From: an uncultured Actinomycetota bacterium
Lineage (GTDB): Bacteria > Actinomycetota > Actinomycetes > JAHEKZ01
Assembly (NCBI GenBank): GCA_963718235.1
Contig: CAVQYR010000002.1
Span: 800,001 to 864,000 of the forward strand
Direction of reading: 5' to 3'
DNA length: 64,000 nt
Every line of letters begins with the position of its first letter. The stretch's first letter is position 1. The notes beneath the pieces were generated by a model. It searched no databases. It saw nothing but the letters and a program-made list of their open reading frames with translations, and was not told the origin of the DNA. A program made the position numbers and the translations under genes. This document shows, piece after piece, positions 4,174-41,230 of this stretch.

Positions 4174-5795
<1,622 letters not shown>

Positions 5796-28781: not shown

Positions 28782-30206
28782 GTGGCAGCACAGATCCCGG
28801 ACCCGACAGGCTCACGGTTCCTTTCGTCGTTGGCCGACGCATCCCCACGGTCGCTGTGGCTCGACGATCCCGGCGCTCCTGAACCAGCCCCGGCCCTGGT
28901 CGGCCGGGTGCGGTGCGACCTGCTCGTCGTGGGTGGTGGCTTCACCGGCCTGTGGGCGGCCCTGCAGGCCAAGGAGGACGACCCGTCGCTCGACGTCGTC
29001 GTCCTCGAGGGCCGCGAGGTGGGGTGGGCGGCGTCGGGTCGAAACGGTGGCTTCGTGTCCAGCAGCCTGACCCATGGGCTGATCAACGGCGTCGAGCGCT
29101 TCCCCGACGAGATGCAGACCCTCGAGCGACTGGGCCACGAGAACCTCCAGGGCATCGAGGAGTCGCTGAAGACCTACGGGATCGACGCCGACTGGGAGCG
29201 CAACGGCGAGCTGACCGTCGCGTACGAGCCGTGGCAGATGGAGCACATCAAGACCATGCCCGAGCTGGGCGAGCGCTACGGCAGCACCGTGGAGGTGTGG
29301 GACGCCGAGCGGATCCAGGCCGAGGTCGCGTCGCCGACCTACGTGGGGGCCGCGTACGAGGCCGAGGGGACCGCGCTGGTCAACCCGGCCAAGCTCGCGT
29401 GGGGGCTGCGGAAGGCGTGCCTCGACCTGGGGGTGCGACTGTTCGAGCGCACACCGGTGACCGGACTGGCCGAGGAGTCCGGTCGCATGGTTGCCACGAC
29501 GGCTTACGGCCAGGTGCAGGCGAGCAAGGTCGCCTTGGGCACCAACGTGTTCCCGAGCCTGGTGAGACGGGCCCGCCCGTACGTCGTGCCGGTGTGGGAC
29601 TACGTGCTGGCGACCGAGCCGCTGACCGCTGACCAGCGCGCGTCGATCGGCTGGCAGCAGCGGCAGGGGATCGGTGACTCGGCCAACCAGTTCCACTACT
29701 ACCGGCTGACGGCCGACGACCGGATCCTGTGGGGCGGCTACGACGCGATCTACTACTTCGGCAACGGCATGGACTCCAGGCACGAGCACCGCCCTGAGAC
29801 CTACGCCAAGCTCGCCGCGCACTTCTTCACCACCTTCCCGCAGCTGGAGGGGGTGCGGTTCAGCCACGCCTGGGGTGGTGCGATCGACACCTGCACGCGG
29901 TTCTGTGCCTTCTGGGGACAGGCCTACGGCGGGAAGGTGGCCTATGTCGGCGGGTACACCGGCCTGGGCGTGGGGGCCACCCGGTTCGGTGCCCGGGTGC
30001 TGCTGGACCTGCTGTCGGGGCGGCCTACCCCGCGCACGGAGCTGGACTTCGTGCGAAACAAGCCGCTGCCCTTCCCCCCCGAGCCGGTGAAGTTCGCCGG
30101 GATCCAGCTGACTCGCTGGTCGATCGACCAGGCCGACCGGAACCAGGGGCGACGTAACTCCTGGCTGCGCACGCTCGACCGGCTGGGCCTGGGCTTCGAC
30201 TCCTGA
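28782..30206 (+). CDS. FAD-dependent oxidoreductase (PuuB-like gamma-glutamylputrescine/amine oxidase family)
   Basis: VGGGFTGLW, ASGRNGGF, QFHYYR, FPPEP, LGLGFDS end. Confidence 0.9.
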   Translation: MAAQIPDPTGSRFLSSLADASPRSLWLDDPGAPEPAPALVGRVRCDLLVVGGGFTGLWAALQAKEDDPSLDVVVLEGREVGWAASGRNGGFVSSSLTHGLINGVERFPDEMQTLERLGHENLQGIEESLKTYGIDADWERNGELTVAYEPWQMEHIKTMPELGERYGSTVEVWDAERIQAEVASPTYVGAAYEAEGTALVNPAKLAWGLRKACLDLGVRLFERTPVTGLAEESGRMVATTAYGQVQASKVALGTNVFPSLVRRARPYVVPVWDYVLATEPLTADQRASIGWQQRQGIGDSANQFHYYRLTADDRILWGGYDAIYYFGNGMDSRHEHRPETYAKLAAHFFTTFPQLEGVRFSHAWGGAIDTCTRFCAFWGQAYGGKVAYVGGYTGLGVGATRFGARVLLDLLSGRPTPRTELDFVRNKPLPFPPEPVKFAGIQLTRWSIDQADRNQGRRNSWLRTLDRLGLGFDS

Positions 30207-30342
30207 CCCAGCAAGTCGGTTTGCAGGGTGTATCCCAGACTGCTGGATCAGCGACAGCGTGCGACTTGATCGATCGGCTGCCGCGCGAGCAGACTGGGTG
30301 CACCGCGCAGACTCACCTCACCGGCACCAGGAAGGCACCGTC

Positions 30343-31848
30343 ATGAGCAGCCCAGCGAGCAAGCACGTCACCCACTGGATCGACGGCAAGCCGTTCGGTG
30401 GGGTGGCCGACCGCAGCGGGGACATCTTCGACCCGGCCACCGGCCAGGTCACCGGTCGGGTCGACTTCGCCGACGTCGCCCTCGTCGACGAGGCCGTCGC
30501 AGCCGCCCATGCAGCGGCCCAGGAGTGGGGACAGGCGTCGCTGGCCAAGCGCACCCAGGTGCTCTTCAGGTTCCGCGAGCTGCTCGACGCCCGCAAGGAG
30601 GAGATCGCCGCGATCATCACCGCCGAGCACGGCAAGGTGCTGTCGGACGCGCTCGGTGAGGTGAGCCGCGGCCAGGAGATCGTCGAGTTCGCCTGCGGGA
30701 TCCCCCATCTGGTCAAGGGCGGGTTCTCCGAGAACGTGTCGACCCGGGTCGACTCGTACTCGATCCGTCAGTCCCTCGGTGTGGTTGGCATCATCAGCCC
30801 GTTCAACTTCCCGGCGATGGTCCCGATGTGGTTCTTCCCGATCGCCATCGCCACCGGCAACACCGTGATCCTCAAGCCCAGTGAGAAGGACCCCTCCACC
30901 GCCAACTACCTGGCCGAGCTGTGGGCCGAGGCGGGACTCCCGGCGGGCGTCTTCAACGTGGTGCACGGCGACAAGGTGGCCGTCGACCGGCTGCTGGAGC
31001 ACCCGGACGTCAAGAGCATCTCGTTCGTCGGCTCGACGCCGATCGCCAAGTACGTGTACGAGACGGGTACCGCGCACGGAAAGCGCGTTCAGGCCCTCGG
31101 CGGGGCGAAGAACCACATGCTGGTGCTGCCCGACGCCGACCTCGACCTCGCCGCGGACCAGGCGATCAACGCCGGCTTCGGATCTGCGGGTGAGCGCTGC
31201 ATGGCGATCTCGGTGGTGCTCGCGGTCGACCCGATCGGCGACGAGCTGATCGCCAAGATCGTGGAGCGGATGGGCCGGCTGCGCACGGGCGACGGTCGTC
31301 GCGGCGCCGACATGGGTCCGCTCGTGACCGGGCAGCACCGGGACAAGGTGACCGGGTATGTGGCGGCCGGTGTCGACGAGGGGGCGACCCTGGTCGTCGA
31401 CGGTCGCGACGTTCAGCCCGACGGCGACGCCGACGGCTTCTGGCTCGGGCCGACGCTCTTCGACCAGGTCACCCCTGACATGTCCATCTACAAGGAGGAG
31501 ATCTTCGGCCCGGTGCTCTCGGTCGTCCGGGTGCCCTCCTACGACGCCGGGGTGCGCCTCATCAACGACCACCCCTACGGCAACGGAACGGCGATCTTCA
31601 CCAACGACGGGGGAGCGGCGCGCCGGTTCCAGAACGAGGTCGAGGTCGGCATGATCGGGGTCAACGTCCCGATCCCCGTGCCGATGGCGTACTACTCGTT
31701 CGGCGGCTGGAAGAGCTCGCTGTTCGGAGACCTGCACGCTCATGGTCTGGACGGCATCGCGTTCTTCACTCGTGGCAAGGTCGTGACCAGCCGCTGGCTG
31801 GACCCGAGCCACGGAGGCCTGAACCTCGGGTTCCCCCAGAACATCTGA
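30343..31848 (+). CDS. mmsA: CoA-acylating (methyl)malonate-semialdehyde dehydrogenase
   Basis: PFNFPAMVPMW, KPSEKDP, GGAKNH, GSAGERCMA, GVNVPIPVP. Confidence 0.93.
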   Translation: MSSPASKHVTHWIDGKPFGGVADRSGDIFDPATGQVTGRVDFADVALVDEAVAAAHAAAQEWGQASLAKRTQVLFRFRELLDARKEEIAAIITAEHGKVLSDALGEVSRGQEIVEFACGIPHLVKGGFSENVSTRVDSYSIRQSLGVVGIISPFNFPAMVPMWFFPIAIATGNTVILKPSEKDPSTANYLAELWAEAGLPAGVFNVVHGDKVAVDRLLEHPDVKSISFVGSTPIAKYVYETGTAHGKRVQALGGAKNHMLVLPDADLDLAADQAINAGFGSAGERCMAISVVLAVDPIGDELIAKIVERMGRLRTGDGRRGADMGPLVTGQHRDKVTGYVAAGVDEGATLVVDGRDVQPDGDADGFWLGPTLFDQVTPDMSIYKEEIFGPVLSVVRVPSYDAGVRLINDHPYGNGTAIFTNDGGAARRFQNEVEVGMIGVNVPIPVPMAYYSFGGWKSSLFGDLHAHGLDGIAFFTRGKVVTSRWLDPSHGGLNLGFPQNI

Positions 31849-31915
31849 CACCAGAACACCTGACACCCGGTTGGCCGATCGACGCGGGTGGCACCGTGGT
31901 CGACCATGACTCCTT

Positions 31916-32422
31916 GTGACCGCGCGACTGGCCGACCCACGAACTGACGTCGTCGCTGTGCTCCGTCGGTTCCACGCAGCGGTGGCCGAGCGCCGCGGCG
32001 AGCAGGAAGTCGTCGATGCGGTCGCCTCCTTCGCCCGTGAGACCTTCGCGGCGGCGTCGGTGACGGTCAACCACATGGACCACGTGCGCGGCCACTATCG
32101 GTCAGTGGTCAACCTCGGTCACCTCGGACCGGGTGAGTCGCTGCACCCGGCCGACGAGACCCACGGGTTCGCCGACTACCCGTGGACCACGATGGCGCTG
32201 CTCGCCGGCCGCGGCTACCGCTCCCACCTGTCGGACCCCGACTGCCCGGTGGAGTACCAGCAGCTGCTGCGCAGGCTGGGCAAGCCGGCGTGCCTCGGCG
32301 CGCCCATCCGCAGACAGGGAACGGTGATGGGTGAGCTGTGGCTCAGCCGGGACGACCCGTTCGCCGACCGCGACGTCGACCTGCTGACGGCGCTCGGGGC
32401 AGCGACCGCCCGCTACCTGTGA
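31916..32422 (+). CDS. Stand-alone GAF domain protein
   Basis: FADYPWT...CLGAPIRRQGTVMGELWLSR...F...DVDLL GAF-like pattern. Confidence 0.75.
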   Translation: MTARLADPRTDVVAVLRRFHAAVAERRGEQEVVDAVASFARETFAAASVTVNHMDHVRGHYRSVVNLGHLGPGESLHPADETHGFADYPWTTMALLAGRGYRSHLSDPDCPVEYQQLLRRLGKPACLGAPIRRQGTVMGELWLSRDDPFADRDVDLLTALGAATARYL

Positions 32423-32514
32423 AAGGCCCTGCCGCGGGGGCGGTCAGGGACCTGCGGGGGCCGGCTTCGGTGTCCGGGTCTCGCCGGTGAGGTCGGGTCA
32501 GTAGGCTCGTCCTC

Positions 32515-33543
32515 GTGACGCGATACGGACCCATGTTCGGCCCAGACATCACCTTCCTCGGCGTGCCGCGCTGCACCGTCGACGAGCCGGACACCTACGC
32601 CGATGCCGACGTCGTCATCGTCGGGGCGCCCTTCGACGGCGGCACCTCGCACCGACCTGGGACGAGGTTCGGTCCGATGGCCATGCGGGGCACCGACTAC
32701 CTCCCCCACGACGGCTCGCGCCCGCACATGGCGATGCGGGTCGATGCGCTCACCGACGACCTGACCGTCGTCGACGCCGGTGACCTCGAGGTGTACTCCG
32801 GCGACGTCGTCCGCAGCTGCGCCACGATCGAGCAGGCCGTGAGCACGATCGCCGCAGCCGGCAAGGTGCCCCTCGTCCTGGGTGGTGACCACACGATCAC
32901 CTGGCCCGACGTCACCGGTGTGGCGCATGCGTACGGTTTCGGCCGGGTCGCGGTCATCCACTTCGACGCCCACGCCGACACCGGCGACATCGAGTTCGGG
33001 TCGCTGTACGGACACGGTCAGCCGATGCGCAGGCTGATCGAGTCCGGGGCGGCGCGAGGGGACCGGTTCCTGCAGATCGGGTTGCGCGGCTACTGGCCCG
33101 GCCCGGAGACCCTCGACTGGATGGCCGACGAGGGCATGCGGTCGTTCCACATGAGCGAGATCGTCGAGCGCGGTCTCGACGCAGTGCTCGACGAGGCCTT
33201 CTCGATCGCGACCGACGACTGCGACGCGGTGTTCTTGTCCGTGGACATCGACGTCTGCGACCCCGGGCACGCGCCCGGAACCGGCACGCCAGAGCCCGGA
33301 GGGCTCACGGCCCGCCAGCTGCTCGACGCGGTGTCCCGGATCTGCTACGAGCTGCCGGTGGCGGGGATTGACGTGGTCGAGGTCTCCCCGCCGTACGACC
33401 ACGCCGAGATCACCGTGCTGCTCGGCAACCGGGTCGTGCTGGAGTCCTTGGCCGGGCTGGCCCGCCGGGCCCGCGACGCGGAGTCCGGGACCGTGTGGAA
33501 CCGGGCCACGCCCCTGCTGGACGGTCGCGGCACCGCGCGCTGA
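32515..33543 (+). CDS. speB: Agmatinase-family ureohydrolase
   Basis: GGDHT, HFDAHAD, DIDVCDPGHAPGTGTPEPGG, VEVSPPYD; exact substrate uncertain. Confidence 0.88.
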   Translation: MTRYGPMFGPDITFLGVPRCTVDEPDTYADADVVIVGAPFDGGTSHRPGTRFGPMAMRGTDYLPHDGSRPHMAMRVDALTDDLTVVDAGDLEVYSGDVVRSCATIEQAVSTIAAAGKVPLVLGGDHTITWPDVTGVAHAYGFGRVAVIHFDAHADTGDIEFGSLYGHGQPMRRLIESGAARGDRFLQIGLRGYWPGPETLDWMADEGMRSFHMSEIVERGLDAVLDEAFSIATDDCDAVFLSVDIDVCDPGHAPGTGTPEPGGLTARQLLDAVSRICYELPVAGIDVVEVSPPYDHAEITVLLGNRVVLESLAGLARRARDAESGTVWNRATPLLDGRGTAR

Positions 33544-33584
33544 GGCCCCCGCGAGGCAGGTCGGCCCCGCGGCTGATCGCACTG

Positions 33585-33599
33585 ATTACTCTGCGTGAC
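33585..33599. promoter_or_regulatory. Putative BldD box ATTACTCTGCGTGAC
   Basis: Matches all fixed positions of the Streptomyces BldD consensus NTNACNC(A/T)GNGTNAN. Confidence 0.5.
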
Positions 33600-33731
33600 G
33601 ATGCCTGACCCCTCGTGTCCACCCGTTCGGGCGACCAACTCCGGCCCCCGCGATGGCGACAACTAGTCCCAGGGGGGACCGAGCTACCGGCCGTTCCCAC
33701 CCGTTCGTCGCAACGCAAGGGAAGGGGAGCG

Positions 33732-33836
33732 ATGAAGAAGATCGACAAGGGGACCCTGGTGCGCGGCTCTGCCGCACTCGCAGGTCTCGTCGCCCTGGTC
33801 TCCACGGTCGGAGCCGGGACCAAGTGGATGCACTGA
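33732..33836 (+). CDS. Small peptide 1 (34 aa) MKKIDKGTLVRGSAALAGLVALVSTVGAGTKWMH
   Basis: RBS GGGGAG upstream; basic N-terminus, hydrophobic core; paralog immediately downstream. Confidence 0.8.
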   Translation: MKKIDKGTLVRGSAALAGLVALVSTVGAGTKWMH

Positions 33837-33848
33837 GAGGGGGATGAC

Positions 33849-33953
33849 ATGGAAGACATCAAGACCGCAGTCATCTCTCGGGTCTTGATCAGCGCCGGCA
33901 CGGTCGTGACTCTCGTCTCGGTCGTCGGTGCAGGTCGGAAATGGTGTCACTGA
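33849..33953 (+). CDS. Small peptide 2 (34 aa) MEDIKTAVISRVLISAGTVVTLVSVVGAGRKWCH (not in ORF track)
   Basis: RBS GAGGGGG; 14/34 ungapped identity to peptide 1, 11/15 in the C-terminal part; overlaps start of GGDEF-EAL ORF. Confidence 0.8.
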   Translation: MEDIKTAVISRVLISAGTVVTLVSVVGAGRKWCH

Positions 33954-36079
33954 CACCACGCCGTGGAGGGGTCGCCGGCTCGCCGGCGGCCCCTCGTCGT
34001 CATGACACGTTGCCGCTCGAGGTCTACATCGCCACGGTGTCGGTCATCGGTGTCTCCCTGCTCGCCCTGACCTGGTGGTTGGTCCCACCTGCCTTGATGT
34101 TCAGCGCCGCGACCTGGACCGATGCCACGTCGCCGGTGACCGTCGTCCTGCTGCTCGGCATCGCGCTCGTGCTCGGTGAGCTGCGCCCGATCCCGATCTC
34201 GCGCGGAGGCGACCTCACCGACTGGATCTCCATCTCGACCACGTTCGCTGTGGCCCTGATCGTCCTGGGGCCGGTCAGTGTCGCCGTCGTCGCGCAGGCC
34301 GCGGCCGTCCTGATCGACGACGTGCGGATGCGCCGCGCGTTCAGCAAGGTGGCGTTCAACGTCGGCCAGTACGTCATCACGATCATCGCGGCCCGGGTGG
34401 TCTACAGCCTGGTCTCGGGCACCCCCTTCGCGGCGCCGGCCACCACCTTCGAACCGACACCGGCAGCACTGCTCGGTGCGATCGCGGCGGGAGCCATGTT
34501 CGTGCTCGTCAACCACGGGCTCGTGTCGACCGTGGTCGCACTCCAGAGCCGGCAGCCGATCCTGGTGATCATGAGCGGTGACATCCGCTTCCAGTCCATG
34601 ACCAACGGGGTCCTGGCGGCGCTCGGTCCCATCGCCGCGGTCGCCGTGCAGCAGCAACCGCTCATGCTGCCCCTCCTCATCGCACCGGTCCTGGCGGTGT
34701 ACCGCAGCGCCGACCTGGCGATCCAGAAGGAGCGACAGGCGCACCACGACACCCTGACCGAGCTGCCGAACCGCGAGCTCTTCCGCGACAAGGCGGAGCG
34801 GGCGCTGGCCGAGTCCCAGCGGTCGGGCGTGCCGCTCGCGGTGATGATGATCGACCTGGACCACTTCAAGGAGATCAACGACACCCTGGGCCACCACATC
34901 GGCGACGACCTGATCCGAGAGGTCGCCACCAGGCTGGACCAGGCGCGTCCCATCGGCTCCACGGTGGCCCGCCTGGGCGGTGACGAGTTCGCCGTCCTGC
35001 TGCCCGACGTACCAGACCTCTCGGTGGCCGAGGAGGTCGCCACGTACATGCTCTCGGTGCTCGGCAAGTCGCTGTCCGCCGGCGGGGTGCGGCTCGTCGT
35101 CCAGGCCAGCATCGGGATCTCGCTGGCGCCCGACCACGGGCACGACGTGCACACCCTGATGAAGAACGCCGACATCGCGTTGTACGAGGCCAAGCGGGAG
35201 CGAGCCAGGTTCTGCGCCTACCAGCCCGACGAGGACGTCCACACGCCGCAGCGGCTCGCGATCCTGGCCGACCTGCGCACCGCCGTGGACGAGGGGCAGC
35301 TCTTCCTGGAGTTCCAGCCCAAGATCGACCTGGCGACCGACACCGTGATGGGTGCGGAGGCCCTGGTGCGGTGGAACCACCCCACGCGGGGCATCATCAG
35401 GCCGGACGACTTCATCCCCCTCGCCGAGAACACCGGGCTGATCACCCCGATCACCTGGTTCGTCATCGAGCGGTCCCTGCAGCAGTGCCGCTACTGGCGT
35501 GACCAGGGCCTGCCCCTCGGGGTGGCGGTGAACCTCTCGGTGCGCCACCTCAGTGACATGAGCCTGCCCGACCGGATCGGCGTCGCCCTCGAACGCTGGG
35601 GTGTGCCGGCGTCGGAGCTCACCGTCGAGGTCACCGAGAGCAGCATCATGACCGACCCCCAGCGCGCGATGGGGGTCATCCGACACCTGCGCCAGGTGGG
35701 GATCGGTGTCGCGATCGACGACTACGGGACCGGCCACGCGTCGTTGACGTACCTCAAGCGTCTCGAGATCGACGAGCTGAAGATCGACAAGTCGTTCATC
35801 ATGCACATGTCCGCCGAGGGCAACGACCCGATCATCGTCCGGTCGACCATCGAGCTGGGGCACAACCTCGGACTCCGGATCGTGGCCGAGGGCGTCGAGG
35901 ACGCCGACACGTTGGGCTGGCTGCGCGAGGTGGGCTGTGACGTCGCCCAGGGCTACCACATGGCCCGACCGATGGCCCCGGAGGCCGTCGAGGAGCTGGC
36001 CCGACGCCGGCTGGGCGAGCCGACGGAGACGCCCGTGCTGTCCAGCGGCGGACGACTGCGCCTGGTGGGAACGGCATGA
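33941..36079 (+). CDS. Membrane-anchored GGDEF-EAL diguanylate cyclase/phosphodiesterase with multi-TM N-terminal sensor
   Basis: ~7 hydrophobic segments, DLDHFKEINDTLGH, RLGGDEF, EALVRW, DDYGTG, KIDKSF, AEGVE, QGY. Confidence 0.95.
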   Translation: MVSLTPRRGGVAGSPAAPRRHDTLPLEVYIATVSVIGVSLLALTWWLVPPALMFSAATWTDATSPVTVVLLLGIALVLGELRPIPISRGGDLTDWISISTTFAVALIVLGPVSVAVVAQAAAVLIDDVRMRRAFSKVAFNVGQYVITIIAARVVYSLVSGTPFAAPATTFEPTPAALLGAIAAGAMFVLVNHGLVSTVVALQSRQPILVIMSGDIRFQSMTNGVLAALGPIAAVAVQQQPLMLPLLIAPVLAVYRSADLAIQKERQAHHDTLTELPNRELFRDKAERALAESQRSGVPLAVMMIDLDHFKEINDTLGHHIGDDLIREVATRLDQARPIGSTVARLGGDEFAVLLPDVPDLSVAEEVATYMLSVLGKSLSAGGVRLVVQASIGISLAPDHGHDVHTLMKNADIALYEAKRERARFCAYQPDEDVHTPQRLAILADLRTAVDEGQLFLEFQPKIDLATDTVMGAEALVRWNHPTRGIIRPDDFIPLAENTGLITPITWFVIERSLQQCRYWRDQGLPLGVAVNLSVRHLSDMSLPDRIGVALERWGVPASELTVEVTESSIMTDPQRAMGVIRHLRQVGIGVAIDDYGTGHASLTYLKRLEIDELKIDKSFIMHMSAEGNDPIIVRSTIELGHNLGLRIVAEGVEDADTLGWLREVGCDVAQGYHMARPMAPEAVEELARRRLGEPTETPVLSSGGRLRLVGTA

Positions 36080-36089
36080 GGGGGACGAC

Positions 36090-36737
36090 ATGCTGATCCT
36101 CGTGCTGGCGGTTGCGGCTCTCGTGTCGCCCTTCCTGTTCGGTGGCCGGCTGAGTCGGCTGGCGCAGATCCACCTCACTGCCGTGTGGATCCCGGTCGCC
36201 GCGCTGCTGGCTCAGATCGTGATCATCGAGGTCGTTCCGGACGCCTCACGCGTGGTCCTCGAGGCGGTGCACCTGGCCACCTACGTGGCGGCCGGGGTGT
36301 TCGTGGTGCTCAACCGTCGGGTTCCCGGACTCTTGATCATCGCGGTCGGCGCTGCCCTGAACGGGGTGACGATCGCCCTGAACGGCGGAACCCTTCCGGC
36401 CAGTGAGGCCGCCCAGCGACTGGCGGGCATCGAGTCGACCCCCGGTGAGTTCATCAACTCCGCCGCGCTGACCGACCCGGTGCTTCCGATGTTCGGCGAC
36501 ATCTTCGCCTGGCCGGCGCCGCTGCCGCTGGCGAACGTGTTCAGCCTGGGCGATGTGGTCATCGTGTTCGGAGCGTTCTACGGCGCGCAGAAGATCTGCG
36601 GGTCCCGCCTGGTCAAGCCCTGGCAGGAACGGGCAACCGACGAGGCTTCGGCCAGCGGCTCCGACAGCGTTCGCAGCGTGTCGCAGGAGAGCAGTGCGGC
36701 TCCTCACGCTCCAACGGAGTCGACTCCTCTAGTCTGA
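36090..36737 (+). CDS. DUF5317 family membrane protein
   Basis: GGRLSRL, GAALN..IALNGG.LP, GDIF, NVFSLGD pattern; RBS GAGGGGG. Confidence 0.82.
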   Translation: MLILVLAVAALVSPFLFGGRLSRLAQIHLTAVWIPVAALLAQIVIIEVVPDASRVVLEAVHLATYVAAGVFVVLNRRVPGLLIIAVGAALNGVTIALNGGTLPASEAAQRLAGIESTPGEFINSAALTDPVLPMFGDIFAWPAPLPLANVFSLGDVVIVFGAFYGAQKICGSRLVKPWQERATDEASASGSDSVRSVSQESSAAPHAPTESTPLV

Positions 36738-36803
36738 CCGGATCGTTGGTCGTCACCTGGGCGGCGGCCAGGCTGCCGGCGTCCCGAAAGGACCCTCAAC
36801 TCC

Positions 36804-38024
36804 ATGCGAATCCTGCTCATCGGAGCCGGCGGCGTCGGCTCGGCCGTGGTTCCGATCGCGGCCCGGCGGTCGTTCTTCGAGACGATGGTGGTCGCCGACT
36901 ACGACCGCGCGCGAGCCGATCGGGCCGTGGCGCAGGTCGGGGACCCGCGGTTCGTGGCCGACCAGGTGGACGCGTCGAACGCCGAGTCCGTGGCGGACCT
37001 CGTCCGTTCGCACCGGATCACCCATGTGCTGAACGCGGTCGACCCGCGCTTCGTGCTGCCGATCTTCAACGGCGCACTCGCCGGAGGTTCCGACTACCTC
37101 GACCTGGCCATGTCGCTCTCCTTCCCGCACGCCGACGACCCCTACCACCAGACGGGGGTGAAGCTGGGTGACGAACAGTTCGCCGCCGCCAAGGAGTGGG
37201 AGCAGCACGGCCGCCTCGCGCTCGTCGGCATCGGCGTCGAGCCCGGGCTGTCCGACGTCTTCGCCCGATACGCGGCCGACGAGCTGTTCAGCGAGATCGA
37301 CGAGGCAGGGGTGCGTGACGGCTCCAATCTCGAGGTCGACGGGTACACGTTCGCGCCGTCCTTCTCGATCTGGACGACGATCGAGGAGTGCCTGAACCCA
37401 CCGGTGATCTGGGAGAAGGGCAGGGGATGGTTCACCACCGCCCCCTTCTCCGAGCCGGAGGTGTTCGACTTCCCCGACGGGATCGGACCGGTGGAGTGCG
37501 TGAACGTCGAGCACGAGGAGGTTCTGCTCATCCCACGATGGGTCGACTGCAAGCGGGCGACCTTCAAGTACGGGCTGGGCGAGGACTTCATCAACGTGCT
37601 GCAGGTGCTGCACAAGCTCGGGCTGGACCGCACCCAACCGCTGGCCGTCGGGTCGGTGGAGGTGAGCCCCCGTGACGTGGTGGCTGCCCTCCTGCCCGAC
37701 CCGGCCTCGCTCGGCGACCGGATGAGAGGCAAGACGTGTGCCGGCACGTGGGTCACCGGAACGGGCAAGGACGGGCGGCCGCGCCAGGTGTACCTGTACC
37801 ACGTCGTCGACAACGAGTGGTCGATGCGGGAGTACGGGTCGCAGGCCGTGGTGTGGCAGACAGCAGTGAACCCGGTGATCGCTCTGGAGCTGTTGTCCAA
37901 CGGGTCATGGTCGGGGGCCGGGGTCCTCGGACCGGAGGCCTTCCCGCCCGTCCCGTTCCTGGACGCCCTGGTCGACTACGGCTCACCGTGGGCGATCCGC
38001 GAGGAGACCCCGGCCGCCGAGTAG
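36804..38024 (+). CDS. Saccharopine dehydrogenase / carboxynorspermidine synthase family protein
   Basis: LIGAGGVG, GVEPGL, FSIWTTIEECLNP, VEHEEV, GPEAF. Confidence 0.88.
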   Translation: MRILLIGAGGVGSAVVPIAARRSFFETMVVADYDRARADRAVAQVGDPRFVADQVDASNAESVADLVRSHRITHVLNAVDPRFVLPIFNGALAGGSDYLDLAMSLSFPHADDPYHQTGVKLGDEQFAAAKEWEQHGRLALVGIGVEPGLSDVFARYAADELFSEIDEAGVRDGSNLEVDGYTFAPSFSIWTTIEECLNPPVIWEKGRGWFTTAPFSEPEVFDFPDGIGPVECVNVEHEEVLLIPRWVDCKRATFKYGLGEDFINVLQVLHKLGLDRTQPLAVGSVEVSPRDVVAALLPDPASLGDRMRGKTCAGTWVTGTGKDGRPRQVYLYHVVDNEWSMREYGSQAVVWQTAVNPVIALELLSNGSWSGAGVLGPEAFPPVPFLDALVDYGSPWAIREETPAAE

Positions 38025-38035
38025 CCGCGCGGCGG

Positions 38036-39394
38036 TCAGCTGCGGGGAGCCGAGCCCTGGTCAGAGAGCAGGTTGTCCAGGACGGGGCCGAGCACCGAGG
38101 CGATGGCCCGCGCCTTGCGCACCTGCTGGCGGGTCCAGGCCGTCTCCTCGGAGTGCGAGCACTCCAGCAGCCCGACTGCGCGGCCCGCGCTGGCCGCGGG
38201 CACCATCATCAGACTGCGCCAGCCGTGGGTGCCCATCCAGGCGATCTCGGCCGGGTCGGCCTCAGGGGCGCTCGCCAGGACCTGCGCCATCTGCATGCTC
38301 GAGAGCACGGCTCGGCTCGTGGCGTAGTCGGCGAGGGGGTAGCGGACCCCTTCGGGCTTCCATCGACCCGGTTCGACCGCCTCGAGCCACTGGCCGGTCG
38401 GGTCGACGAACGACAGGTCCGCCTGGTCGCAGCCGAGCACGTCGGCGACCATGACCATGAGTCGGGCGAGGGTGTCCAGGTCGGCGGCGTCGGACAGCCG
38501 GCCGATGAGGTGCTCCAGCGTGGGCGTGCCGTTGACCTCGGAACCGCGACCACCCACGGCCATGGCCCGTGCGAACGAGGACTCGCACGTGAGCCGCGCC
38601 GCCTCGCTCGCCTCCTCGAACTGCGCGACCGGCATGCCGATCACCCAGCCCTGCGCCTCGGCGACGTCCAGCTCGGCCAGGACGTAGAGGTCCTCCAGGC
38701 TCTCGACGCCCTCGGCGCACACCGCGGCGCCCACCTGGGCCGCGTAGCGCACGATCGCCTCGACCATGGCGGCCTTTCCGGGCTCGGACTCGACCCCGGT
38801 GACCAGCGAGCGGTCGAGCTTGAGCAGGTCGGGCGAGAGCGCCATGACGCGCTGGAGCCCCGCGTACCCCTCGCCGACGTCGTCGACGGCGATCCGGGCA
38901 CCGCGCCCGCGAAGGGCCTCCAGCACGAGGTGGACCCGGTCGGGGTCTTCGACCGCCTCAGTCTCGGTGATCTCGAACTGCAGCCCGGTGAGGTCGAACG
39001 GCAAGACGTTCTGCAACTCGTTGGAGCCGAGGACCGAGGGGCTGACGTTGACCGACAGGAGCACGCCGTCGGGTCGGTTCGCGCCGAGCTGGAGTGCTCG
39101 GTCGACGGCTCGCGCCTCGAGCATGGGTCCGAGCCCGACGCTGTGCGCCATGGTGAACCAACGGTCAGGGGTGAGCGAGGGGCCGCCATGGGTGAACCGG
39201 GCCAGCGCCTCGTAGGACAGGACCCGCCCGGTCGCCAGGCCGAGGATGGGTTGGACGACGATGCTCGGCGAACCGGCGTGCAGGGCCGTGACGACCAGCG
39301 AACGCACCTCGTCGCTGCCCAGGTCGACCGCCGGGTTCGAAGGGGGAGGTGTGGGCAGCGAGGAGCCGGACGTGCTCGTCGTGGTCATCGACAT
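38036..39394 (-). CDS. EAL phosphodiesterase with C-terminal GAF domain
   Basis: QPI, YEALARF, SVNVSP, EITE, DDVGEG, KLDRSL, AEGVE, QGW; C-terminal YPLADY...GLLE GAF. Confidence 0.9.
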   Translation of the reverse strand: MSMTTTSTSGSSLPTPPPSNPAVDLGSDEVRSLVVTALHAGSPSIVVQPILGLATGRVLSYEALARFTHGGPSLTPDRWFTMAHSVGLGPMLEARAVDRALQLGANRPDGVLLSVNVSPSVLGSNELQNVLPFDLTGLQFEITETEAVEDPDRVHLVLEALRGRGARIAVDDVGEGYAGLQRVMALSPDLLKLDRSLVTGVESEPGKAAMVEAIVRYAAQVGAAVCAEGVESLEDLYVLAELDVAEAQGWVIGMPVAQFEEASEAARLTCESSFARAMAVGGRGSEVNGTPTLEHLIGRLSDAADLDTLARLMVMVADVLGCDQADLSFVDPTGQWLEAVEPGRWKPEGVRYPLADYATSRAVLSSMQMAQVLASAPEADPAEIAWMGTHGWRSLMMVPAASAGRAVGLLECSHSEETAWTRQQVRKARAIASVLGPVLDNLLSDQGSAPRS

Positions 39395-39676
39395 CCGCTC
39401 GTCCTCACCCCTCACTGCGCTGGTCTCTGCTCACGCTCTGCCCGGCCCGTGTGCAGCGCCGAGCGCTGACCCGGTCCGGATGCGGAGGTGAGGGCCCCGC
39501 GGGACCCTCATGGGCCTTGGAGTCGGCAGGTGCACGGCCGCGATGTAGCGCCCGACGGGGGAGTGTGCCAGAGGTTACGCCGATCGGGTGAGGCCCGCAC
39601 GACCCTGGACAGGAGCGGTGCCGGGCCCTACCGTGGCGTCGCCCTGCGCCGGACGGCGCGGCGAACGGAGGCAGTG

Positions 39677-41230
39677 ATGGCCACCCAGTCCGAGGCGCCG
39701 ACCAGCGGCGGAGCCGGCGAGAAGGGGCTCAAGAGCGGGGCGATCGGGTTCGTCTCCGGGGTCGTGATCGGGGTGGCGTCGACCGCTCCGGGCTACAGCC
39801 TGGCGGCCGTGCTGGGCCTGGTCGTCTTCGCGGTGGGGTTCCAGGCGCCGGCGATCATGCTCCTGGCGTTCGTGCCCATGCTGTTCATCGCGGCGTCCTA
39901 CTACTACCTGAACCGGGCCGACCCCGACTGCGGAACGACCTTCGCCTGGGTCACCCGGGCCATGGGGCCGTACTGGGGCTGGATGGGTGGCTGGGGGATC
40001 ATCGTCGCCGACATCATCGTCATGGCGAACCTGGCCGAAGTCGCCTCGATCTACACGTTCGACCTGTTCGGCATCGACAGCGAGAGCAAGTGGCTCGTCG
40101 TCGGGCTCGGCGTGGTCTGGATCGCCGTGATGACCTGGATCACCTGGCGCGGCATCGAGCTCTCAGCGCGCACCCAGCTCTTCCTGCTGGGGGCCGAGAT
40201 CGCTGCGCTGGTCCTCTTCGCCGCTGTCGCCTTGTTCCGGGTCTACTTCGGTGACGTCGCCGGGTCGGTCGATCCGTCCTTGTCGTGGCTGAACCCGTTC
40301 GCGATCGAGGGCACCGATGGCCAGAGCGCCCTTCAGGCGATGACGGCTGGGCTGCTGCTGGCCCTGTTCATCTACTGGGGCTGGGACTCCACGGTAACCG
40401 TCAACGAGGAGACCGAGGACTCCGCGGAGGCCCCGGGGCGGGCCGCGATCTGGTCGACCATCATCCTCCTCGGGATCTACGTGATCGTCTCCGTCGCCGC
40501 GATCGCCTATGCGGGACCGGCGTTCCTCGCCCTGGAGGAGAACCAGGGCGACGCCCTGGGGGTGCTGGCCGCCGACGTCTTGGGTCCGCTCAGCTGGGTG
40601 CTGATCATCGCGGTGCTCACCAGTGCGGCCGCTTCTACCCAGACCACGATCCTGCCGACGGCCCGCACGATGCTCTCGATGGGGGCCAAGGGAGCGGTGC
40701 CCAAGTACTGGGCGAGGATCCACCCGCGCTACCTGACGCCCGGACCAGCGACGCTGTGGATGGGTGCCCTGAGCATCATCTGGTACGTCGGCTTGAAGAT
40801 GGTCTCGGAGAACATCCTCTACGACGCAATCGCGGCCCTCGGCCTGATGATCGCTTTCTACTACGGCCTGACCGGGTACGCCGCGGTCATCTACTACCGC
40901 CGTCACCTGTTCGACAGCGTCAAGGCGTTCGTCATGGTCGGGGTCGCGCCGCTGGTCGGGGCGCTGATCCTCACCTGGGCGCTCGTCCGGTCGGCGATCG
41001 ACCTGGCCGACCCGGCCAACTCCGAGTCCGGGACCTCGTGGTTCGGCTACGGTCCGCCGCTGGTCATCGCGGTGGGCTTCATGGTGCTCGGGCTGATCTT
41101 GATGATCGTCATGCGGGTCACGAGCCCGGAGTTCTTCCGGCGCAAGCCCGAGGTCGTGCCCGAGGAGATCGGTCTGTCGGTGTCGAGCCGGGCCGGCGCC
41201 ACCGCTGACCGCAAGGGAGAGGAGTCCTGA
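39677..41230 (+). CDS. APC family amino acid/polyamine permease
   Basis: ASTAPGYSLA, FIYWGWD, NEET; ~12 TM. Confidence 0.92.
   Translation: MATQSEAPTSGGAGEKGLKSGAIGFVSGVVIGVASTAPGYSLAAVLGLVVFAVGFQAPAIMLLAFVPMLFIAASYYYLNRADPDCGTTFAWVTRAMGPYWGWMGGWGIIVADIIVMANLAEVASIYTFDLFGIDSESKWLVVGLGVVWIAVMTWITWRGIELSARTQLFLLGAEIAALVLFAAVALFRVYFGDVAGSVDPSLSWLNPFAIEGTDGQSALQAMTAGLLLALFIYWGWDSTVTVNEETEDSAEAPGRAAIWSTIILLGIYVIVSVAAIAYAGPAFLALEENQGDALGVLAADVLGPLSWVLIIAVLTSAAASTQTTILPTARTMLSMGAKGAVPKYWARIHPRYLTPGPATLWMGALSIIWYVGLKMVSENILYDAIAALGLMIAFYYGLTGYAAVIYYRRHLFDSVKAFVMVGVAPLVGALILTWALVRSAIDLADPANSESGTSWFGYGPPLVIAVGFMVLGLILMIVMRVTSPEFFRRKPEVVPEEIGLSVSSRAGATADRKGEES

Follow-up and report, generated by a model that had tools for sequence, protein, structure and literature searches.

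Signalling modules that combine a peptide, a polytopic sensor and a dedicated membrane protein are known from the agr and comQXPA systems. In agr, the AgrD peptide is encoded with the membrane peptidase AgrB, which carries a His/Cys pair, and the polytopic sensor kinase AgrC. In comQXPA, the ComX peptide bears a modified tryptophan near its C-terminus, ComQ is the enzyme that prenylates this residue and ComP is a multi-helix sensor kinase. The third membrane component of known peptide/sensor modules is usually a processing enzyme or an exporter. Here we describe a locus of four closely packed same-strand genes in a 64,000-nucleotide (nt) stretch of DNA from an uncultured Actinomycetota bacterium (assembly GCA_963718235.1, contig CAVQYR010000002.1, positions 800,001 to 864,000 of the forward strand; hereafter the window). 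The genes encode two mini-peptides (A and B), a membrane sensor with GGDEF and EAL domains, and a membrane protein of the Pfam family DUF5317 (PF17248). Mini-peptides, a MASE9-type sensor and DUF5317 form a conserved three-part membrane module, within which we give a probability of about one in three to DUF5317 being a dedicated peptide-maturation enzyme at the outer face of the membrane, like LspA and AgrB and not detectably related to either.

The first-pass annotation of the window had read DUF5317 as a diverged relative of signal peptidase II (LspA, peptidase family A8), with the adjacent peptides as its substrates. The part of the LspA study available to us defines that family by four transmembrane helices, a beta-cradle after helix 1, an aspartate dyad at the outer face and 14 conserved residues, which in Staphylococcus aureus are Asp21, Lys25, Asn52, Gly54, Gly102, Asn106, Asp109, Arg110, Val116, Asp118, Phe132, Asn133, Ala135 and Asp136 (PMC6952399). 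MASE9 (PF20972) was the subject of a 2021 preprint, the accessible part of which reports neither a ligand nor partner proteins (bioRxiv 10.1101/2021.11.05.467447).

A conserved three-part membrane module

Mini-peptide gene A (33732-33836, +) encodes 34 amino acids (aa) with a basic N-terminus, one hydrophobic helix and the C-terminal end VGAG-T-K-W-MH. The purine-rich stretch GGAAGGGGAG lies ahead of its ATG. Gene B (33849-33953, +), a 34-aa paralogue likewise preceded by a purine-rich stretch, ends in VGAG-R-K-W-CH, and its stop codon overlaps the start of the sensor gene (33941-36079, +). The 712-aa sensor begins with a MASE9-like polytopic domain of about 260 aa, to which GGDEF and EAL domains (Pfam E-values 1.1e-46 and 9.8e-73) are joined on the C-terminal side. 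MASE9 itself was matched below the cut-off (E 0.018; 15.4 bits directly against a cut-off of 24.3). Profiles of such sensor domains matched histidine kinases of loci L197 and L206 at about 1e-36 to 1e-38, and these kinases score 29.7 and 29.2 bits for MASE9, above that cut-off. The DUF5317 gene (36090-36737, +) starts 10 nt past the sensor stop, behind a GAGGGGGA stretch, and its 215-aa product matches PF17248 over residues 27-164, above the gathering score (E 1.4e-22, 80.8 bits, cut-off 25).

The two adjacent 34-aa VGAG peptides named in the first-pass annotation proved real, and their tie to DUF5317 was borne out: such peptides recur with it over hundreds of loci, even where the GGDEF-EAL gene is missing. 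Within 28-36 aa, they share a basic N-terminus (mean net charge +2), a single hydrophobic helix and, towards the C-terminus, a small-G-x-K-[W/F] motif with 0-5 residues after it. In an alignment of 30 peptides (A2), A28 and K31 are invariant, and G27, G29 and W32 are each present in at least 90%. The profile of this alignment, which includes genes A and B, matches them at E 6.1e-14 and 7.3e-17, respectively. No NCBIfam or Pfam model matched the mini-peptides.

Linkage was assessed in three sets of loci. The first comprised 40 class-survey loci with 6-kb flanks, of which 19, with the window, form subfamily A and 21 form the looser subfamily B. All 20 subfamily-A loci carry a homologous membrane-domain-GGDEF-EAL gene directly upstream of DUF5317 on the same strand, and all 20 have at least one mini-open reading frame (mini-ORF; 28-35 aa) just upstream of this sensor gene. 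Several also encode a second peptide without the helix that keeps G-[R/H/Y]-K-[W/F]. The second set consisted of 63 named genome records, at least 10 of which share contigs with the first set, and included the cultured carriers Demequina, Cellulomonas and Kineosporia (Kineosporia mesophila). The sensor gene was present in 58 of the 60 loci with at least 3.1 kb of upstream sequence, and a peptide in 55 of these 58. At the sensor-less loci L118 and L121, the peptide ORF stands directly upstream of DUF5317; L118 is a bare pair flanked by unrelated opposite-strand genes, and L121 has a major facilitator superfamily (MFS) gene upstream. The pair of peptide and DUF5317 persists without the sensor.

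The third set, 80 metagenome loci, was retrieved with an alignment of DUF5317-MFS fusions (A5); a metagenome scan with the single fusion protein P0187 returned no relative. A peptide ORF was found within 2.6 kb in 46 of the 62 loci having at least 500 nt upstream. As background, the same filter gave 7 matches in 186 kb of other sequence from these loci and 59 in the 3,172-kb genome. Same-strand sensors are rare in this set, and peptide ORFs lie between DUF5317 and a divergent sensor gene, co-directional with the latter. The divergent upstream gene encodes a histidine kinase in five of five loci scanned, two of which pass the Pfam MASE9 cut-off, and a GGDEF-EAL protein in both MFS-fusion loci scanned. 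A MASE9-like domain was detected in 33 of the 40 loci whose upstream sequence reached at least 1.3 kb.

Subfamily B has no GGDEF-EAL gene; a downstream gene pair lies on the opposite strand. At L074 the pair encodes HD_5 (HD-GYP-type) proteins, one with a MASE9 match just below the cut-off. N-terminal domains of HD-GYP-type proteins were located in 12 of the 21 loci, and hhalign aligned the membrane domain of window-type sensors to them at a probability of 98.7% (E 4.5e-16, 211 columns). The three genes adjoin in three different arrangements. Candidate peptides of subfamily B were found in 5 of 21 loci as amphipathic ORFs of 20-25 aa upstream of the opposite-strand pair, in which a basic or polar residue (H, S, K or R) precedes a terminal Trp.

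Of 201 genomes sampled from the same class, 97 contain DUF5317; the tally takes in four unpublished genomes. The A2 profile matched 33 of the 201 at E <= 1e-4, and 32 of these 33 are DUF5317-positive; with the unpublished genome G035 excluded, the figure is 31 of 32. In the lone genome with a peptide and no DUF5317, a contig end is 54 nt away from the peptide. Up to six peptide ORFs occur in genomes that have one DUF5317 gene. Many peptides per DUF5317 fit substrates or ligands, not fixed subunits.

Some peptide genes occur in larger arrays or on their own. Four to five tandem mini-peptide ORFs, two of them nearly identical, stand upstream of the sensor in L064 (2621-3580), the same locus as L107. 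Three genomes of the same family also contain orphan peptide-gene pairs that are remote from the DUF5317 locus and have no sensor or DUF5317 within 6-9 kb (L246, about 4481-4700, -; L247, about 4390-4620, +; L248, about 4701-4930, -; L249, about 1510-1736, +). Their neighbours include genes for a D-Tyr-tRNA deacylase, an M20 peptidase and an aldo-keto reductase. Leaderless bacteriocins were rejected as an identity for the peptides, which are conserved across families, mostly confined to a single locus and tied to sensors.

The placement of the mini-ORFs could also mean that they regulate translation of the sensor gene, with DUF5317 linked to MASE9 in some other way, such as lipid or ion sensing. 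They are directly upstream of the sensor and co-directional with it in most arrangements, the second stop in the window overlaps the sensor start, and their last few codons are the most conserved, as in known arrest peptides. Such a role is nevertheless improbable: the orphan pairs precede unrelated genes, peptide and DUF5317 pair without a sensor, the hydrophobic helix is conserved, and there are two to five tandem copies, those of the window each with a purine-rich stretch of its own.

At the RNA level, a 258-nt metatranscriptome contig covers 33588-33841, the leader and all of peptide gene A, with one differing letter, and a second contig lies at 35899-36051. The first is a weak hint of transcription, as DNA can occur in these libraries. 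No sequencing run contained as much as half of the stretch. The pieces that aligned were mostly 90-95% alike and concentrated on the conserved GGDEF segment; we base no claim about habitat or expression on them. Between 33400 and 36950, a scan for promoters and terminators gave no promoter-like site, and its one weak terminator-like site falls within the DUF5317 gene and does not exceed chance expectation. Rfam gave no match in 30000-40000 of the window at E <= 1. In subfamily B, a leader of about 130 nt that begins at an invariant TTGACAACT is conserved upstream of the mini-ORFs (L073:2931-3153, +; L089:9302-9524, -; L091:2905-3127, +; L094:9297-9519, -; L095:9258-9480, -). The arms of its hairpin covary (CACGAGC/GCTCGTG, CGCGGAC/GTCCGTG, CACGGGC/GCCCGTG, CACAGGC/GCCTGTG). 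Rfam at the gathering score matched nothing in seven subfamily-B loci, leader included, and no such leader precedes the peptides of the window. The subfamily-B leader could represent an undescribed regulatory RNA or an operator.

Further neighbours were noted. A second cyclic di-GMP (c-di-GMP) gene, a 459-aa ORF at 38036-39415 (-) matched by an EAL query, lies about 1.3 kb downstream of DUF5317, and an opposite-strand EAL match also occurs in the relatives L062, L063, L066, L067 and L068. Outside the window, the same genome holds two tandem MASE9-like genes (G000:C2:722865-726255; profile E 3.6e-24 and 2.8e-14), with neither a mini-peptide nor DUF5317 nearby. The first encodes a 693-aa GGDEF-EAL protein (L102:1165-3246) and directly follows an ORF read by eye as DNA ligase. 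DUF5317 of subfamily B is repeatedly found beside a divergent biotin carboxylase gene, with a T2SSE-type secretion ATPase further on (L074:4516-5853, -; L094:3016-4092, -).

The DUF5317 family and its relation to LspA

Three segments of DUF5317 carry the resemblance to LspA on which the first-pass annotation had drawn, and all three were confirmed in the translation. The segment GAALNGVTIALNGG (residues 87-100; 36348-36389, +) lies at the end of helix 4. GDIF (residues 136-139; 36495-36506, +) contains Asp137 (nt 36498-36500), with which a short strand of the outer loop begins. NVFSLGD (residues 149-155; 36534-36554, +) joins a strand to the first turn of helix 5 and contains Asp155 (nt 36552-36554), 18 residues from Asp137. 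A check on the constancy of the two aspartates had been proposed, and both are invariant in 60 of 60 representatives at identities of at least 36% (alignment A1), in 41 of 41 sequences of the two subfamilies at identities down to 22% (22-34% between subfamilies) and in all 169 distinct domains drawn from 181 loci. The residues G87, N91, N98, P103, S152 and G154 are likewise invariant in 169/169. The three segments are signatures of the family, not chance strings.

With 2,127 cluster representatives at E <= 0.001, this is a large family. Among 14 control genomes, it was matched in exactly two, Thermus thermophilus and Thermotoga maritima, and these were also the only two to pass the MASE9 cut-off. 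A scan of the NCBIfam library found no family for DUF5317, the ESM Atlas returned DUF5317 clusters alone and nothing usable once these were skipped, and a full-text search found no paper naming DUF5317 or PF17248 within the searched library. Some DUF5317 proteins have C-terminal extensions of 300-540 aa without a Pfam domain (L121:3438-5597, +; P0131, P0135, P0138), part of which may be an artefact of long open frames in high-GC DNA.

An AlphaFold2 model of DUF5317 (pLDDT 90, pTM 0.80; the predictor's own confidence scores) places five predicted transmembrane helices at residues 2-16, 33-48, 54-74, 81-97 and 153-170. A 55-residue outer loop separates the last two, and the C-terminal tail is disordered from about residue 180. 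Residues 76-178 modelled alone form short strands at 102-104, 123-124, 137-141 and 149-152. In both models, strands 137-141 and 149-152 border a 7-residue loop directly ahead of helix 5, and their register would make D137 and D155 neighbours. Mean counts of Lys and Arg per sequence are 3.33 in loop 1, 0.17 in loop 2, 1.47 in loop 3 and 4.07 on the C-terminal side, and the long loop 4 is acidic overall. By the positive-inside rule, this distribution predicts an N-out, C-in topology with the aspartate pair at the outer face. The invariant residues N91, N98, P103, D137, S152, G154 and D155 cluster where helices 4 and 5 reach the outer face and within the loop that connects these two helices.

Several of these features recall LspA. 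Both are small polytopic membrane proteins with two invariant aspartates at the outer surface (for LspA, from the available part of PMC6952399), the second within an F-[N/S]-x-[A/G]-D motif that starts the last helix. In both, G-x-x-x-N lies in a preceding helix ahead of a loop (G87/N91 and Gly102/Asn106), and the presumed partner is a peptide that a helix anchors in the membrane and that carries small residues where it reaches the outer boundary. DUF5317 thus shares the two outer-face aspartates of A8 peptidases, with D155 in the first turn of helix 5, and their catalytic role is putative. The genome also encodes an ordinary LspA elsewhere (L001:1339-1971; PF01252, E 1.6e-36), which contains the motifs that the first-pass annotation gave for the family, as GGALGNLIDR, VVDW and FNLAD. 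The claim of a similar aspartate spacing stands in part: the 18 residues of DUF5317 equal the distance between the catalytic residues Asp118 and Asp136 of S. aureus LspA (PMC6952399, in the part available), whereas the two aspartates of the genome's own LspA are 14 apart.

However, kinship to A8 found no support in Pfam, PDB-profile, hhalign or fold comparisons. At E <= 1, hmmscan of the DUF5317 protein against Pfam returned PF17248 alone and no PF01252, BLASTP against the genome's own LspA gave a best E-value of 19, and the DUF5317 profile retrieved no LspA chain from PDB sequences at E <= 10. As a positive comparison, the genome's own LspA retrieved 6ryo, 5dir and 9emz from the same sequences. 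When hhalign compared the DUF5317 alignment with LspA from actinobacteria (29 sequences, with L054 excluded because its genome is unpublished), it yielded one local alignment of 27-33 columns, with P 0.0046, 0.0012 and 0.006 in three runs. It pairs NVFSxGD with VFNxAD and leaves D137 one column out of register. Reversed decoys gave P 0.0047-0.012 and the best of 40 block shuffles 0.0017; because decoys reach the same P, the alignment is at noise level. Foldseek of the whole model against PDB returned seven rows (best E 6.4), none of them LspA. The Foldseek and VIA-align lists for the whole model and for residues 76-178 contained no LspA chain, although absence from such a list does not exclude a family. 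The first-pass annotation had named a lack of structural similarity to A8 peptidases as evidence against its proposal, and such a lack is what was found, as far as these searches can show.

Residue and architectural comparisons point the same way. In our own motif mapping, which is not a tool alignment, 4 of the 14 LspA residues are identical in DUF5317 (G87 to Gly102, N91 to Asn106, D137 to Asp118 and D155 to Asp136). Asn133 is replaced by S152, Ala135 by G154, Asp109 by T94 and Arg110 by I95; no counterpart exists for the four N-terminal residues or Val116, and ten of the 14 are thus without an identical counterpart. The Asp-Arg of the LspA GNxxDR motif is therefore Thr-Ile in DUF5317, the Ile being invariant in A1. 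The DUF5317 model has five helices rather than four, all its strands fall in the helix 4-5 loop, and just 5 residues connect helices 2 and 3, at the place of the LspA beta-cradle; no cradle lies between the first two equivalent helices. From the Asn to the first Asp, there are 46 residues in DUF5317 and 12 in LspA. The VGAG of the peptides had been likened to a lipobox without its lipidated Cys, and in the 30 aligned peptides GAG is never followed by Cys, the position being T, R, K, V, W or S. A normal LspA is, moreover, already present in the genome. On balance, it is very improbable that DUF5317 is a diverged A8 member with the same dyad and fold, and we take its resemblance to LspA as a motif-level analogy. 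Kinship to GxGD-type proteases (prepilin peptidase and presenilin) was dropped on the grounds that their active sites face the cytoplasm; no profile comparison was made with these.

Candidate roles of DUF5317

Transporter fusions bear on the role of DUF5317. Fusions to MFS_3 or MFS_1 domains were found in 7 of 10 long representatives scanned, and 12 metagenome loci were flagged as fused. A separate MFS gene lies directly downstream of DUF5317 in L076 and upstream in L121. In L170-L172, the peptide ORF ends 56-60 nt before the DUF5317-MFS fusion gene, and no sensor was found nearby. These cases would suit an export or insertion helper that recognises the peptide and moves its charged C-terminal end across the membrane, or passes the peptide to an MFS exporter, with the invariant residues lining a translocation groove rather than an active site. 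However, most DUF5317 genes have no transporter fusion or adjacency (1 of 40 loci in the first set, none of 63 flagged in the second), and five helices with a large outer loop are small for a translocase. We regard such a helper as unlikely.

The invariant residues themselves allow a binding role. Small membrane proteins are known to modulate sensor kinases, as MgrB does PhoQ. In DUF5317, an acidic pocket of D137 and D155 with N91, N98 and S152 could hold the Lys-Trp end of the peptide, and the complex would then modulate the MASE9 sensor. The invariant acidic pair is predicted at the same membrane face as the invariant K31 and the nearly constant W32 of the 30 aligned peptides. The K-W ends and the GAP variants suit a helix cap plus anchor better than a cleavage site, the genes are neighbours in all three arrangements, and no protease-like sequence signal is present. 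Against this, the aspartate pair stays invariant in subfamily B despite the varied residue before Trp in its candidate peptides. Several scattered peptide loci per DUF5317 are more in keeping with an enzyme or receptor that serves many peptides than with a fixed subunit, and the MFS fusions and the sensor-less pairs are left unexplained. Complex predictions of DUF5317 residues 1-180 (A1) with peptides (A2), run without controls, scored 0.33, 0.22 and 0.24 (median 0.24, mark 0.32) and are counted neither way. We consider docking a serious possibility, almost as likely as a maturation enzyme.

The peptide end could also be the site of a modification. DUF5317 might attach a group, for example a lipid-linked one, to the Trp or Lys, with the Asp and Asn residues binding a metal-phosphate donor. 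The Trp stands 0-5 residues from the C-terminus next to the invariant Lys, an Asp/Asn/Ser cluster lies at the membrane boundary, and the layout of peptide, polytopic sensor and accessory protein is like that of comQXPA. However, DUF5317 shows no similarity to any transferase family and is very small for a transferase with a lipid-linked donor, and no donor-synthesis genes were noticed in the Pfam-scanned neighbourhoods. We regard a transferase as quite unlikely.

We favour a maturation enzyme for four reasons: the polar cluster is invariant even where the basic residue of the peptides varies, the peptides behave as multi-copy substrates or ligands, fusions to MFS exporters occur, and known modules of this kind usually have a processing enzyme or exporter as their third component. 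In the corresponding model, the mini-peptides would insert N-in, C-out, so that the G-x-K-W end is placed at the outer boundary near the aspartate pair of DUF5317. There, DUF5317 would act directly on the peptide end, most likely as a hydrolase that cuts near the junction of the small residues and G-x-K-W. In doing so it would resemble LspA and AgrB, as a membrane enzyme by which a peptide anchored through its helix is trimmed in the outer leaflet. The matured peptide, or a freed short Trp peptide, would be read by the MASE9 domain, which in this organism would then set c-di-GMP synthesis or breakdown.

Several observations weigh against a maturation enzyme. Searches of Pfam, NCBIfam and PDB sequences showed no sequence similarity of DUF5317 to any protease family. 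Many peptides end exactly at K-W or carry Pro at the small-residue position (GAPRKW, GAPKKW), and a cut after GAG would be unlike a signal-peptidase site because only 2-3 residues would be freed and Pro would stand at the scissile site. The helix-less second peptides of several loci (with ends such as VPGRKWGC and PGYKWV) should not reach an outer-face site. The candidate peptides of subfamily B are amphipathic and limited to 5 of 21 loci, and with the filters used no peptide was found in 16 of 62 eligible metagenome loci or in 3 of 58 genome loci. Binding of the conserved Lys, or of a cation, would account for the invariant acidic pair equally well. The mini-ORFs are putative genes, their translation being read from sequence. 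Finally, all counts of linkage and co-occurrence overstate the number of independent events because related genomes are not independent.

The fullest version of the maturation model is correspondingly more speculative, and we put it forward as a conjecture: the Trp-tailed mini-peptides would be the ligands of MASE9 and DUF5317 a new outer-face aspartyl maturation enzyme, in an agr- or ComQXPA-like circuit that feeds into c-di-GMP turnover or two-component phosphorylation. Such a circuit would be widespread in Actinomycetota and possibly beyond, as both Pfam families match in Thermus and Thermotoga.

Comparison with described peptide-signalling systems

Taken together, the module points to an undescribed peptide-based signalling unit. 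The MASE9 sensors, defined in 2021 without a known signal in the part of the preprint available (bioRxiv 10.1101/2021.11.05.467447), now have two partner candidates, the unannotated peptides of about 30 aa and DUF5317. The same source lists HD-GYP and GGDEF-EAL outputs, as found here, and the partner sensors described above add histidine kinases. The eight invariant residues of DUF5317 and the cultured carriers (Demequina, Cellulomonas and Kineosporia) make the question of the MASE9 signal directly testable. Were DUF5317 catalytic, it would be a membrane-embedded aspartyl enzyme without a detectable relative among solved structures. Were it not, the module would still be a new case of mini-proteins governing c-di-GMP and kinase signalling.

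Among described systems, agr shares with the module a peptide gene, a dedicated polytopic membrane protein and a polytopic sensor that are encoded together, as well as the occurrence of several peptide variants. Unlike AgrB with its His/Cys pair, DUF5317 has no AgrB match in Pfam. The peptides described here are conserved rather than hypervariable and lack a conserved thiolactone-forming Cys, and the outputs are c-di-GMP turnover, HD-GYP or kinase. The comQXPA system resembles the module in the Trp a few residues from the peptide C-terminus, in an accessory protein with essential Asp residues and in a sensor with about eight membrane helices. However, ComQ is related to prenyl-diphosphate synthases and DUF5317 is not, and ComX precursors have no membrane helix.

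Two further comparisons concern the ends of the module. Like Phr pro-peptides, the window's peptides can be read as signal-peptide-like n, h and c regions followed by a tail of 3-6 residues, but the tail after K-W can be zero, and no Opp- or Rap-type partners were seen. The DUF5317-MFS fusions recall the processing domain joined to the exporter in peptidase-containing ABC exporters; here, however, the exporter is MFS rather than ABC, and the putative active site faces outward. The general kind of system is thus familiar from agr and comQXPA, and its parts in this module are new.

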